NCBI GenBank assembly: GCA_035630335.1
Contig: DASQKV010000053.1
Location: 12,063-76,062, forward strand
DNA: 64,000 bases
Reading direction: 5' to 3'
DNA from: Thermoleophilaceae bacterium
Lineage (GTDB): Bacteria; Actinomycetota; Thermoleophilia; Solirubrobacterales; Thermoleophilaceae
Position 1 is the stretch's first letter. Every line of letters starts with the position of its first letter. A program made the position numbers and the translations under genes. Shown piece by piece: positions 43,068 through 51,758 of this stretch. The notes beneath the pieces are model-generated. The model did no database searches and was not told the DNA's origin. It was given only the letters and a program-made list of their open reading frames with translations.

Positions 43068-43958
43068 TCAGCCGGTTACTGGCACGCCCTCCGCGGCAGT
43101 CTCGGCTCGATCTCTCACGACCATCCCGGTCGCGACTACCTGCACCGTGCCCGTCATCGTGAGCACGTCTCCATCCCACTCGACCTGGATCGCACCGCCC
43201 GGCTGGCGGACGTAGCCGCCGCCGATCGGGCGGCCGGCCACGCGCTCGGCCGCGATCGCGGCCGCGGCGGCGCCGGTTGCACAGCCGCGCACGGGGCCGA
43301 CGCCGCGCTCCCACGGAGTCACGGTCAGCCCACCGTCGCCGTCGTGCGAGGCGAACATCACGTTCGTGCCGCCCGGGCGCGTGTCGCACAGCGCCGCCCC
43401 GGCGGCGGCGACGTCGTCGCCCGCCGGGCGCGGGCCGAACACGATCAGGTGCGGCACGCCGAGCTCCATCTGCACGACGCGTCCGCCCTCGCCAACCTCG
43501 AGTATCGGGTCGGCCGGGAGCGGCATCTCGGCGCGGAACGTCCACGGGTCGCGGTCGAGCAGCACGTGCTCGACCGACGCCCCGGAGCTGACCACCGTGA
43601 CGGCGTCGCCCGGAGTCAGCCCGTCGCGCTCGCAGATCAGCGCGGCCGCCGCGCGGGCGCCGTTGCCGCACCAGGCGGCCTCCGAGCCGTCGACGTTGAA
43701 CACGCGCATGTGGTGCGTGACGGTGTCCGGATCGCTGTCGATCACGATCAGGCCGTCGCCGCCGAGGCCGCGGATGCCGTCGGCAATCCAGCCGGCGGAC
43801 GCGATCGCGCCGGGCTGGGCCTCGAGCAGAACGTACGAGTTGCCCTCGGCGTAGCACTTCCAGAACGGCAGCCGATCAACGCCGTCGCGCGGCTCCTCGT
43901 CGAGCAGCGGCCGCGCGGCCACCGGGCGCTCCTGATACCGCACCTGGGCGTCGCTCAC
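43068..43958 (-). CDS. Diaminopimelate epimerase (DapF)-family protein
   Basis: Two catalytic-Cys motifs, AAWCGNGARAAA and VRGCATGAAAAA. GTG 43958 overlaps the upstream TGA (GTGA). It is the 3' part of track ORF 43068..45053. Confidence 0.85.
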   Translation of the reverse strand: MSDAQVRYQERPVAARPLLDEEPRDGVDRLPFWKCYAEGNSYVLLEAQPGAIASAGWIADGIRGLGGDGLIVIDSDPDTVTHHMRVFNVDGSEAAWCGNGARAAAALICERDGLTPGDAVTVVSSGASVEHVLLDRDPWTFRAEMPLPADPILEVGEGGRVVQMELGVPHLIVFGPRPAGDDVAAAGAALCDTRPGGTNVMFASHDGDGGLTVTPWERGVGPVRGCATGAAAAAIAAERVAGRPIGGGYVRQPGGAIQVEWDGDVLTMTGTVQVVATGMVVRDRAETAAEGVPVTG

Positions 43959-45106
43959 GACGGCCCTCCCCCGTTGAGGCCGAAGCCGGCCGGGCGCCGG
44001 GCGCCGGCGCGCGTCTCCTGCAGGTAGCCGTCGAGGCGGTCCAGGCCGGCGGCGAGCTCCGGCGTCGCGGCGCCGAGGCGCAGGAAGCCCTCGGTCTCGT
44101 AGCAGACGCTTCCCGGCGCCAGCAGGACTCCGGTCGAGTGGACGAGGTCGCCGCAGAAGTCGAGCGTCGGGACGTCGCGCTTCAGCCGCGGGAAGAACAG
44201 GCCGCCGGCGGGCGGCTCGACGAAGTCGAAGTCGTCCTCGTGGTCGGCGAGCCAACCGGCGGCGATCTCGACGCCCTGCTCGGTGATCCGCCAGGAGCGC
44301 GCGAGCACGGCGTCGCGGTGCTCGAGCGCGGCGAGCGCCCACTGCTGGTCGCGCGAGCCGGGGTTCAGCGACGTGTACTTGCGGAACTGGCGCGCCCGGA
44401 CGACCAGCTCCGGGTTGGCGACCAGCCAGCCGATCCGCAGCCCCGGCAGCGCATAGGACTTGCTCATCGAGCCGATCACGACCAGGTTCTCCTGGCCGTC
44501 CCAGGAGGACGGCGGGTGGTCGCTGCGCATCTCGCGGAAGACCTCGTCGACGACCAGGTGGACGCCGCGCGGCTCGAGCCGGCGCGCCAGCTCGCGCAGG
44601 TCCTCGGGCGCGATCGTCTGGCCGGTCGGGTTGTGCGGCACGTTGAGCAGCACGACGCGCGTGCGGTCGCCGACGGCAGCCTCGATCTCGGCGAGATCGA
44701 TCTCGAAGTCGCGCTCGGCCTCGAGGCGCACGAAGCGGACGCTGGCGCCGGCGCCGCTGGCGAGCTCGTAGAGCGGCTGGTAGGCGGGCCAGAGGCAGAC
44801 GACCTCGTCGCCCGGGTCGAGCAGCAGGTTGCTGAGGATCAGCAGCGCCTCGATCGCGCCGACCGTGACCATCACGTTGTCGGCGCTCGCCGGCGGGTTC
44901 AGCGCCGCGATCGCCTCGCGCAGCTCCATGTAGCCCGACGAGGGCGTGTAGCCGACCTCCCAGTCGAGGTTGGGCCGCTCGCCGCCGGCGATCTCGGTCA
45001 GCTCGGAGGCGGTCATCGGCTGCGCGCCGCTGAGCGCGAGCATCAGCTCGCAACTGAACTCGTAGTCCTCGAAGAACTCCTCCTGGCGGAAGACCGAGAG
45101 CTTCAC
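43955..45106 (-). CDS. Class I/II PLP-dependent aminotransferase
   Basis: NPTGQ, plus PLP-Lys motif GSMSKSYALPGLRIGW. GTG 45106 overlaps the upstream TGA. Confidence 0.85.
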   Translation of the reverse strand: MKLSVFRQEEFFEDYEFSCELMLALSGAQPMTASELTEIAGGERPNLDWEVGYTPSSGYMELREAIAALNPPASADNVMVTVGAIEALLILSNLLLDPGDEVVCLWPAYQPLYELASGAGASVRFVRLEAERDFEIDLAEIEAAVGDRTRVVLLNVPHNPTGQTIAPEDLRELARRLEPRGVHLVVDEVFREMRSDHPPSSWDGQENLVVIGSMSKSYALPGLRIGWLVANPELVVRARQFRKYTSLNPGSRDQQWALAALEHRDAVLARSWRITEQGVEIAAGWLADHEDDFDFVEPPAGGLFFPRLKRDVPTLDFCGDLVHSTGVLLAPGSVCYETEGFLRLGAATPELAAGLDRLDGYLQETRAGARRPAGFGLNGGGPS

Positions 45107-50451: not shown

Positions 50452-51758
50452 GGCACGAGGCTCGTGGTCAGGAGGTCCTCGACGCGCTGGCGGCGCTCGA
50501 CCACGCGGCTCTCGCCGTCCTTGACGAACACGACCGGCGGGCGCAGGAAGCCCATGTAGTTGCTCGACATGTTCACCGTGTAGGCGCCGGTGGTCTGGAC
50601 GGCGAGCACGTCGCCGGTGCGCATCTCGGGCAGCATTCGGTCGGGGAAGAGGATGTCGGGCTCGGAGTGGCGGCCGCAGATCGTCACGCGCATCGCGGGG
50701 TCGCCGAACGGGTCGCGCGCGAGCTTGACCTCGTGGTGGGCGCTGTACATCAGGTGGCGCGGGTTGTCGGACAGCCCGCCGTCGACGATGACGAAGTGGA
50801 TGCCCTCCGCGCCGGGCGGGCCGGCGGGCTTGATCGGCCCGACGGTGTAGAGCATCAGGCCGCTCTCGGCGACCACCGAGCGGCCGGGCTCGATCCCGAG
50901 TCGCACGTCCTCGGCGCACAGCGGCGCGACCTCGTCGGCGAACGTGCCGGCGATGGCATCGGCCCACTCCGCGGCCGGCGGGGGAGCGTCGGTCGGGTAG
51001 TAGCGCACGGCGCGCCCGCCGCCGGCGACGATCCGCCGCGGGCGGAAGTCGGGATGGCGCTGCTGGGCGGCCGCGAGCACCTCGCCGACGCGGCGCATCG
51101 CCTGGCGGTAGGGGTCGAACTCGTGCAGCTGCGAGCTGAGGTGGAAGTGGATCCCGTCGAGCCGCAGCGCGGGCTCCGACAGCGCGCGGTCGATCGCCAT
51201 CGCGGCGAAGCCGTGCTCGATCGAGAGGCCGAACTTGGTGTCGTCGCCGACGGTGGTGAAGTGCGGGTTCTCCAGCCCGGTGACGGTCGGGTTGATCCGC
51301 ACCAGCACCGGCTGGAGGCGTCCCAGCCGCTCGGCGACACGCGCGATCAGCGAGATCTCGGCGAGGTTGTCGATCACGATCACGCCGCAGTCGGCGTCGA
51401 TCGCGAACTCGAGGTCGGCCTCCTTCTTGAACGTGCCGTGGTAGGTGAGCAGCTCGGGCGGGCAGCCCGACTGCAGGGCCATGTTCATCTCCCCGACCGA
51501 GACGACCTCGAGCCCGAGCCCCTCGGACAGGGCGAGCTCCATCATCGCCGGCGCCGTGAACGCCTTGCACGCGAACGAGACGTCGACGCGCGGCCAGCGG
51601 CGCTCGAACTCCTCGACGTAGGCGCGGCACATCCTGCGGATCTCCGCCTCGTCATAGATGTAGCTCGGGGTTCCGTGCTCCTCGGCGAGCTCCACCGTCG
51701 AACACCCTCCAACCCATAGAGCCCCATCCCCTCCTACCTCCTGGGTACCCAAAAGCAT
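50448..51758 (-). CDS. Orn/DAP/Arg decarboxylase family 2 enzyme (LysA-like)
   Basis: HGTPSYIYDE, PLP-Lys motif SFACKAF, TICGRHSEPDIL. Start is ATG 51758 or GTG 51695, which has a better SD (ggaggg). Confidence 0.85.
   Translation of the reverse strand: MLLGTQEVGGDGALWVGGCSTVELAEEHGTPSYIYDEAEIRRMCRAYVEEFERRWPRVDVSFACKAFTAPAMMELALSEGLGLEVVSVGEMNMALQSGCPPELLTYHGTFKKEADLEFAIDADCGVIVIDNLAEISLIARVAERLGRLQPVLVRINPTVTGLENPHFTTVGDDTKFGLSIEHGFAAMAIDRALSEPALRLDGIHFHLSSQLHEFDPYRQAMRRVGEVLAAAQQRHPDFRPRRIVAGGGRAVRYYPTDAPPPAAEWADAIAGTFADEVAPLCAEDVRLGIEPGRSVVAESGLMLYTVGPIKPAGPPGAEGIHFVIVDGGLSDNPRHLMYSAHHEVKLARDPFGDPAMRVTICGRHSEPDILFPDRMLPEMRTGDVLAVQTTGAYTVNMSSNYMGFLRPPVVFVKDGESRVVERRQRVEDLLTTSLVP

Follow-up and report, generated by a model that had tools for sequence, protein, structure and literature searches.

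The 64,000-nucleotide window analysed here (part of contig DASQKV010000053.1, or C53, of the Thermoleophilaceae assembly GCA_035630335.1) contains paralogues of diaminopimelate (DAP) epimerase and DAP decarboxylase, termed DapF' and LysA', which are embedded in an operon of the LysW amino-group carrier protein (AmCP) type. The two genes are extra copies and not the primary lysine genes of the organism. There is about an even chance that they form a dedicated epimerase and decarboxylase pair, recruited from the DAP route into a specialised LysW pathway that proceeds via a pyruvate-extended LysW-bound semialdehyde. The proposal builds on what is observed of the gene content, the catalytic residues, the paralogy and clades of the two enzymes, the conservation of the cassette and the homology of its core to an iso-maleimycin-type cluster. 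In primary metabolism, DapF interconverts LL- and meso-diaminopimelate by means of two Cys residues and LysA decarboxylates meso-DAP at its D-centre.

The assembly (2.57 Mb, 80% complete) has a second DapF homologue and a canonical lysA, copies for which the sequence-only reading of this locus had proposed a search. The DapF homologue is on contig C26 (approximately 20981-21811, plus strand) and scores 203 bits against TIGR00652, compared with 121-122 for DapF'. A dapL-like gene (525 bits) follows it directly, and dapB and dapA are on the same contig. The canonical lysA is on contig C61 and scores 423 bits, compared with 346 for LysA'. No Ddh and no DapD N-terminal domain is present in the genome as far as this incomplete assembly covers it. 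In trees of database matches, DapF' belongs to a clade of 91 sequences (89 with support of 1.0) and LysA' to a clade of 60 sequences with support of 1.0. The housekeeping copies, including the LysA on C61, fall outside of these clades, which travel together. The more distant DapF matches (33-34% identity) are ordinary housekeeping genes, one of which adjoins a miaA-type (IPPT) gene. The DapF' relatives were drawn from a protein collection; a peptide-pattern scan of genome contigs gave none.

In the C26 DapF homologue, both catalytic Cys residues are replaced by Ser (ELSGNG, LSSGTG) and H159 by Gln, and all of the DAP-binding residues are kept. This triple change is found in 18 of 18 DapF homologues fetched from genomes of the same order (L039-L056). 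The Ser positions in these genes use several synonymous codons, which fits the expectation for a selected residue. In one other family within the class, ten of ten DapF copies examined are of the Cys/Cys/His form. A literature search found no paper on a Ser/Ser DapF. In each of the 17 same-order genomes of other genera, two of them single-contig, the sole DapF-family match at E <=1e-10 is of the Ser/Ser type, and none of them shows a cassette-type DapF'; therefore, the primary metabolism of the order does not depend on DapF'.

The genes were called from codon-position G+C together with Pfam and NCBIfam scans, and the open reading frames of lysA' and dapF' are real genes as judged by their high G+C at the third codon position. 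A minus-strand operon running from lysA' to a class-I GATase gene diverges from HMGL' (a gene similar to isopropylmalate synthase, IPMS), lysW and a leucyl-tRNA synthetase (LeuRS) paralogue on the plus strand. The stop of lysA' and the start of lysX share GTGA, a 4-bp overlap at 50448-50451. Every further junction as far as dapF' also overlaps: lysX/lysY by 4 bp, lysY/lysZ by 1 bp, lysZ/AT1 by 8 bp, AT1/ATP-grasp by 32 bp, ATP-grasp/AT2 by 4 bp and AT2/dapF' by 4 bp (43955-43958). As had been claimed from the sequence alone, both genes are thus translationally coupled with lysX, lysY, lysZ and the aminotransferases, with overlaps of 1-32 bp. The GATase gene after dapF' and HMGL' at the head of the divergent lysW transcript are members of the same conserved unit.

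The conserved unit has 11 genes in the order HMGL', lysW, lysA', lysX, lysY, lysZ, AT1, ATP-grasp, AT2, dapF' and GATase. The same genes are present in the same order at six loci: the window, a metagenome-assembled genome (MAG) of Thermoleophilaceae (L005), Dactylosporangium salmoneum (L006), Amycolatopsis anabasis (L007), a soil metagenome contig (L008) and a Streptosporangiaceae MAG (L026). In all six, lysA' lies between lysW and lysX. The Thermoleophilaceae and other versions are 37-60% identical for all 11 proteins, so the whole unit was moved or inherited together. Among 401 genomes sampled from the phylum, DapF' was detected in just two, and so was HMGL'; a sample of 151 genomes of the class gave two with DapF'. 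All positives are in one genus. The 11-gene LysW cassette is therefore rare, and it is horizontally spread. In the actinomycetes it is flanked by genes for EamA or MFS exporters, more ATP-grasp ligases, P450, radical-SAM and condensation-domain proteins, which are typical secondary-metabolite neighbours. A literature search for this gene combination, or for DapF with LysA and ATP-grasp enzymes in natural-product clusters, found nothing.

The catalytic residues of both enzymes are intact, and the motifs that had been named earlier (WCGNG, GCATGA and FACKAF) are all present. DapF' barely exceeds the cut-off of the DAP_epimerase model TIGR00652 (122 bits, E 2.9e-35; cut-off 114.65). Its AWCGNGARA and RGCATGAAA motifs align with the catalytic C73 and C217 (E. 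coli numbering), and H159 is kept. When compared with E. coli DapF, the whole DapF' clade keeps N11, N64, C73, N75, H159, N190, E208, R209 and C217. The clade never has N157, which is replaced by A, V, T, S or I; D12 is S or A, and G218 is mostly A. In the window protein these changes are D12S, N157V and G218A. The full set of DAP contacts (N11, N64, G74, N75, N157, N190, E208, R209, G218 and S/T219) is therefore incomplete, with N157 and G218 changed. In Haemophilus DapF, N64, N157, N190 and R209 bind the distal carboxylate of DAP and E208 binds the distal amine (PMC8225329). DapF' thus probably still expects a distal alpha-amino-acid group, in an altered setting. The score of a predicted complex between DapF' residues 27-296 and LysW was 0.00, which has no bearing on binding either way.

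LysA' is above the TIGR01048 cut-off of 297.9 (E 1.5e-103). Its nearest solved structure is M. tuberculosis LysA (245.7 bits), and a D-Orn/Lys decarboxylase scores far lower (107 bits). The SFACKAF, EPGR and DNPRHLMY motifs align with E. coli K54, the Lys that binds pyridoxal phosphate (PLP), and with R271, R307 and Y311. The EPGR Arg and the R/Y pair select the distal L-centre of meso-DAP in DAP decarboxylase, or DAPDC (bioRxiv 10.1101/2020.10.01.322594). The LysA' clade is marked by H[FY]HL[GS]SQ in place of the housekeeping HCHIGSQ and by a different lid loop. In the window protein and 34 Thermoleophilia relatives, HSEP-D replaces the trans-acting CES(G/S)D motif (HCES/HCET), and HCET is kept in the actinomycete cassette and Paenibacillus copies. 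Together with the Ser/Ser DapF described above, the HSEP form makes two Cys-to-Ser changes in DAP-family enzymes of this lineage.

In both pockets, as compared with those of characterised enzymes, most of the ligands for the distal end of DAP are kept, which favours a DAP-like diamino-dicarboxylate and disfavours a mono-carboxylic substrate. N157, D12 and G218 are changed in DapF', and CES has become SEP in the Thermoleophilia LysA'. Since the residues that bind a distal amino acid are kept, the most economical reading is an aminotransferase, then an epimerase, then a decarboxylase acting on a diamino-dicarboxylate. This is the route that the sequence-only reading had suggested; the substrate itself, however, is probably not symmetric DAP and is likelier to be a longer hydroxylated analogue.

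The carbon chain would be extended by HMGL'. The motif TLRD[ST][AL]H is present in 114 of the 120 HMGL' family members listed (TLRDTAH in the window). At the position of its His, the E. coli aldolase MhpE also has His (RDGMH) and E. coli LeuA has Gln (RDGEQ). The corresponding His and a Tyr are catalytic in the DmpG and BphI aldolases. The LeuA motif AHSSGIH has become x[YF]xYEI in the six cassette proteins aligned, and a matching ...YE[IVL] occurs in 115 of the 120 members listed. The metal-ligand HxH and the Arg-Asp pair are kept, and HSHN aligns with HAHH of MhpE. An ordinary homocitrate synthase (HCS) of the aminoadipate route was considered for HMGL' and rejected, because the LeuA Gln and HxxGIH motifs are replaced; the cassette also has no homoaconitase or homoisocitrate dehydrogenase, which counts against that assignment as well. 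The sole machinery of the cassette that makes an aldehyde is LysZ and LysY acting on LysW.

Homologues of HMGL' with approximately 50% identity are common in Streptomyces and Kitasatospora. Maleimycin has a hydroxy-cyclopentene-dicarboximide skeleton, which is most simply derived from a C5 unit of glutamate and added carbons, so glutamate is favoured as the loaded amino acid. In S. cyanogenus (L068) the gene order is HMGL'-lysW-lysX-lysY-lysZ-GATase, followed by an ELFV amino-acid dehydrogenase and an AMP-ligase, and the proteins of this six-gene core are 36-52% identical to those of the window. Since the dehydrogenase in Streptomyces and the aminotransferases here both act on 2-oxo acids, a pyruvate-derived end fits better than an acetate-derived one. 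Streptomyces sp. QL37 has a biosynthetic gene cluster, BGC23a, with IPMS-like, LysW, RimK and AMP-ligase genes, and deletion of lysW-rimK abolishes iso-maleimycin (PMC12022981, published in 2025).

We infer all of the chemical steps of the pathway, as well as which amino acid is loaded and in what order AT2, DapF' and LysA' act; their substrate may be LysW-bound or released. LysX would charge LysW at its C-terminal Glu with an amino acid, most likely glutamate. LysZ and LysY would then convert the side-chain carboxylate to an aldehyde, giving LysW-Glu-semialdehyde. HMGL' could add pyruvate in an aldolase-type reaction to form a LysW-bound 4-hydroxy-2-oxo acid, which with glutamate would be 2-amino-5-hydroxy-7-oxo-octanedioate. 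Transamination of the oxo group by AT1 would create a second, free L-alpha-amino-acid end and thereby a DAP-like 2,7-diamino-dicarboxylate. DapF' would invert the new centre to D, and LysA' would decarboxylate at the D-centre, as in the conversion of DAP to lysine, to give 2,7-diamino-5-hydroxyheptanoate, which is of the hydroxylated homolysine type. The gamma-hydroxyl may be a site of elimination or cyclisation by AT2. The product is probably released when the GATase cleaves the gamma-glutamyl amide, and the ATP-grasp ligase may couple it to another acid. The product of the cassette is most likely an unusual lysine-like amino acid and not ordinary lysine.

A more specific version of this pathway can be stated, although it is unlikely to be right as a whole. 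DapF' and LysA' would act on LysW-tethered C8 5-hydroxy-2,7-diaminosuberate, the first carrier-bound and chain-extended substrate for both families. They would thereby yield an undescribed amino acid, either 5-hydroxy-homolysine or, if AT2 cyclises it, a 5-substituted proline. In Thermoleophilia this product would be passed to LeuRS paralogues and a tRNA-like RNA. The shared HMGL' step, aldol addition of pyruvate to LysW-glutamate semialdehyde, would be the one that first commits the precursor to maleimycin.

The cassette has the full AmCP set of LysW, LysX, LysZ and LysY, with a zinc knuckle and a C-terminal DWGE in LysW, which scores 32.9 bits against NF041070 and is under the cut-off. In D. 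salmoneum (L006:2379-2555) and S. cyanogenus (L068:11221-11406) the C-terminus of LysW is DWGQ, ending in Gln and not Glu. No cassette gene has an Aminotran_3 (LysJ-type) or M20 (LysK-type) domain. GntC/VioD-type PLP cyclases act on hydroxy-arginines. AT2 has GntC (248 bits) and VioD (226 bits) among its best-scoring NCBIfam models, both under the cut-offs. Among solved structures, its matches include 8fft (142.7 bits, second after an uncharacterised aminotransferase), which we take to be GntC, 4m2j (126.4 bits), presumably OrfR, and an aspartate aminotransferase, or AspAT (115 bits). The product of an aldol reaction followed by transamination would be a gamma-hydroxy-alpha-amino acid.

The GATase has an intact catalytic Cys (GICGG) and His-x-Glu. 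It scores 74.8 bits against GMP synthase subunit A, and its nearest structures are GMP-synthase glutaminase subunits. The Streptomyces orthologue, whose gene is likewise fixed in the six-gene core, also hits Peptidase_C26 in Pfam. A plain peptidase-C26 member was rejected for the window copy, whose best matches are the GMP-synthase subunits. The GATase is a candidate LysW gamma-glutamyl amidase or ammonia donor. If it acts on the gamma-glutamyl amide at the C-terminus of LysW, it would serve both in the maturation of DWGQ carriers and in product release, and would fill the place of LysK. A metagenomic protein (P0280) of 578 aa is a fusion of an N-terminal GATase and a C-terminal HMGL', and it is followed by a lysW-sized gene of 61 aa. 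This fusion may be a Rosetta-stone hint of cooperation between the two enzymes, or it may reflect a lost stop codon.

Several observations weigh against the proposed pathway. DapF and DAPDC bind their C7 substrate at both of its ends, so a C8 hydroxylated one would need a re-sized pocket. By score, HMGL' is closer to the Claisen-type IPMS and HCS than to the DmpG aldolases: its scores are 201-210 bits for the IPMS/NifV models, well short of the cut-offs, and 61-64 bits for DmpG-type models, whose cut-offs are 229-286. This affinity means that acetyl-CoA chemistry is possible. The cyclase scores of AT2 are only slightly above those of plain aspartate aminotransferases. The S. cyanogenus core matches QL37 BGC23a in gene content and order as these are described in PMC12022981, with no comparison of sequences. 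In Paenibacillus methanolicus there is a DapF'/LysA' pair of the same clades without LysW genes; its neighbours are a carrier protein, an amino-acid:carrier-protein-ligase-like gene, two ATP-grasp enzymes, an MFS transporter and a thioesterase. A metagenome locus (L009) also has the pair without LysW, together with two SAM synthetases, a methyltransferase and a PALP enzyme. Where the pair occurs without LysW genes, its substrate must have another source, possibly ordinary DAP. The pair is therefore a portable module and not an AmCP-specific invention. The LysA' relative of this metagenome locus (L009:6463-9100) has 615 aa, follows the DapF' relative and carries a C-terminal extension of approximately 170 aa with no Pfam match.

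The LysW-free pairs lead to the alternative that survives best, which is itself rather unlikely. In this alternative DapF' and LysA' supply a precursor, using ordinary LL- or meso-DAP to make L-lysine (or meso-DAP, or D-lysine from DD-DAP), which the ATP-grasp enzyme ligates to the product made on LysW. The pair adjoins ATP-grasp ligases in P. methanolicus and is LysW-free there and at the metagenome locus, almost all of the residues that contact DAP are retained, and the organism makes LL-DAP via its dapL-like gene. However, the loss of N157 across the clade, the changes in D12 and G218 and the altered LysA' lid loop argue for a different substrate. Duplication of the last two, normally non-limiting steps of lysine synthesis would also be an odd way to boost supply, and at all six loci translational coupling ties the pair to the LysW operon.

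The DAP pathway uses DapA chemistry with succinyl or acetyl protecting groups, and an improbable C7 variant of the proposed pathway would copy it, with LysW standing for the protecting group. Here LysX would load Asp, and LysW-aspartate-semialdehyde and pyruvate would give LysW-protected 4-hydroxy-2-amino-6-oxopimelate; the aminotransferases, with AT2 as a gamma-eliminase, would convert this to 4-hydroxy-DAP or DAP and the pair would yield 4-hydroxylysine or lysine. The pocket length of DapF' and LysA' would then be nearly unchanged. On the other side, LysY scores as ArgC and not Asd, and the orthologous core is linked to iso-maleimycin, whose cyclopentene-dicarboximide skeleton needs the C5 unit of glutamate by retro-analysis. 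Loading of aspartate is also unknown in any AmCP system (PMC11726168).

Still less probable is a racemase and D-amino-acid decarboxylase for a mono-carboxylic diamino acid, by which, for instance, L-Orn or L-Lys would be converted to the D-form and then to a diamine. DapF-family racemases exist for other amino acids (PddB, DcsC and the histidine racemases), and the D-Orn/D-Lys decarboxylase is a relative of LysA. Yet DapF' keeps three of the four distal-carboxylate ligands (N64, N157, N190 and R209), all of which are replaced in the Dab racemase PddB (PMC8225329), and LysA' is far nearer to true DAPDC, with EPGR and the R/Y pair kept. Least of all can it be expected that DapF' and LysA' are working primary enzymes placed in a LysW operon by chance: DapF' is the sole Cys/Cys member in the genome, but a canonical lysA is present, the 17 same-order genomes show only the Ser/Ser form, the cassette is in only 2 of the 401 genomes, and both proteins branch apart from the housekeeping clades.

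The coordinates of the cassette genes and of the adjoining LeuRS paralogue are given in Table 1.

Table 1. Genes of the LysW cassette and its plus-strand neighbour in the window (positions from the first nucleotide of the window).
Gene	Position	Strand	Predicted product	Remarks
lysA'	50448-51758	-	LysA', DAP decarboxylase paralogue	first gene of the operon; TIGR01048, 346.5 bits
lysX	49558-50451	-	LysX-like ATP-grasp enzyme (RimK family); predicted to load LysW with an amino acid	TIGR00768, 151.9 bits; LysX_arch, 137.6 bits
lysY/argC	48413-49561	-	LysY/ArgC-like acyl-phosphate reductase	TIGR01850, 331 bits; active-site Cys (PGCFAT) kept
lysZ	47496-48413	-	LysZ/ArgB-like kinase	AA_kinase; [LysW]-aminoadipate/glutamate kinase, 94 bits
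AT1	46328-47503	-	class I/II aminotransferase, AspAT/DapL-like	PF00155, E 3.5e-45; Thermus AspAT, 127 bits; PLP-Lys (TASK)
ATP-grasp	45103-46359	-	L-amino-acid-ligase-like enzyme	ATP-grasp_4 and LAL_C2; nearest solved structures are the L-amino-acid ligases BL00235, BacD and RizA
AT2	43955-45106	-	class I/II PLP enzyme, nearest to the GntC/OrfR/VioD cyclase group	by NCBIfam and PDB; PLP-Lys (SMSK)
dapF'	43068-43958	-	DapF', DAP epimerase paralogue	DAP_epimerase/TIGR00652 match
GATase	42431-43030	-	class-I GATase, GuaA-subunit-like	guaA_Nterm, 88 bits; start uncertain (43030, 43015 or 43003)
HMGL'	~51963-53150	+	IPMS/homocitrate-synthase-like enzyme	HMGL-like, E 9.3e-54; start at 51963 inferred from orthologues
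lysW	53183-53353	+	LysW amino-group carrier protein, 56 aa	CPEC...CREC zinc knuckle; C-terminal SDWGE
LeuRS paralogue	53364-55772	+	divergent extra LeuRS	leuS_bact, 420 bits (cut-off 548); outside of the 11-gene cassette

The window has approximately 70% G+C, and the closest named relatives of the window proteins are from MAGs of Thermoleophilaceae and Solirubrobacterales. The extra LeuRS starts 10 nt after lysW, and the canonical LeuRS is on contigs C36/C14. Just past the GATase gene are a tRNA-like element (Rfam tRNA, 35.5 bits) at 42171-42247 and a truncated LeuRS-like gene at 40123-42162, both on the minus strand. Neighbours of the LeuRS and tRNA-like types are present at the Thermoleophilaceae loci and absent from the actinomycete cassettes. 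The tRNA-like element is the sole match in an Rfam scan, which found no lysine riboswitch and no T-box, and a scan for sigma-70 promoters found nothing. A region of lower G+C (0.62-0.67) at 25769-33414 of the window, on the minus strand, encodes two very large proteins of 1131 aa (no Pfam match) and 1417 aa (NHL repeats).

Few routes of AmCP chemistry are known beyond primary lysine and arginine: the DADH type, an uncharacterised Serratia cluster and the iso-maleimycin cluster. The cassette appears to be a third extension logic, in which C3 is added by an enzyme of the IPMS fold with aldolase-type residues, and the last two enzymes of the DAP pathway are apparently reused as tailoring steps. 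Paralogues of DapF and LysA travel paired in biosynthetic clusters and can be mined by two signatures, a residue other than Asn at DapF position 157 and the LysA motif H[FY]HL[GS]SQ. The cassette is self-contained, with 11 genes, and is carried by Dactylosporangium and Amycolatopsis, which can be cultured. It could give access to a non-proteinogenic diamino acid that is new. It could also open the unsolved early steps of maleimycin biosynthesis.

The cassette is a variant of AmCP specialised metabolism with a core of the iso-maleimycin type; its extension by DapF', LysA', aminotransferases and a ligase is undescribed in the literature searched. The iso-maleimycin or putative maleimycin cluster (QL37 BGC23a, PMC12022981) has the same succession of an IPMS-like gene, lysW and rimK/lysX, and HMGL' and lysW are adjacent at all of the cassette loci. 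The S. cyanogenus representative shares the six-gene core and the RDxxH motif in HMGL'. It differs in having the ELFV dehydrogenase and the AMP-ligase and in lacking DapF', LysA', the class-I aminotransferases and the L-amino-acid ligase. The dehydrogenase and AMP-ligase are absent from the cassettes of the window, L005, L006, L008 and L026, and A. anabasis (L007) has an AMP-binding gene farther downstream. The product of the iso-maleimycin type is a bicyclic maleimide and not an amino acid.

In the DADH-type clusters the chain is extended by a transketolase that adds C2. Here the enzyme is HMGL-like, and no cassette gene matches a transketolase family. The clusters for vazabitide A, ficellomycin, azinomycin B and s56-p1 are otherwise similar in that they make a glutamate semialdehyde with LysW/X/Z/Y, extend it by a C-C bond and transaminate it to a diamino acid; no epimerase or decarboxylase is mentioned for them in that account (PMC11726168). 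The LysW lysine and ornithine pathways of Thermus, Sulfolobus and Thermococcus have in common with the cassette a LysW that ends in DWGE together with LysX, LysZ and LysY. They differ in their LysJ (class-III aminotransferase) and LysK (M20 hydrolase), which are replaced here by class-I aminotransferases and a class-I GATase. The primary DapF and LysA of E. coli and M. tuberculosis share with DapF' and LysA' the folds, the Cys/Cys pair, the PLP-Lys, EPGR and R/Y residues and the logic of an epimerase followed by a D-specific decarboxylase. They differ in belonging to separate clades, and the pair described here is part of a transferable cassette, whereas the primary genes have a dapA/dapB/dapL neighbourhood.

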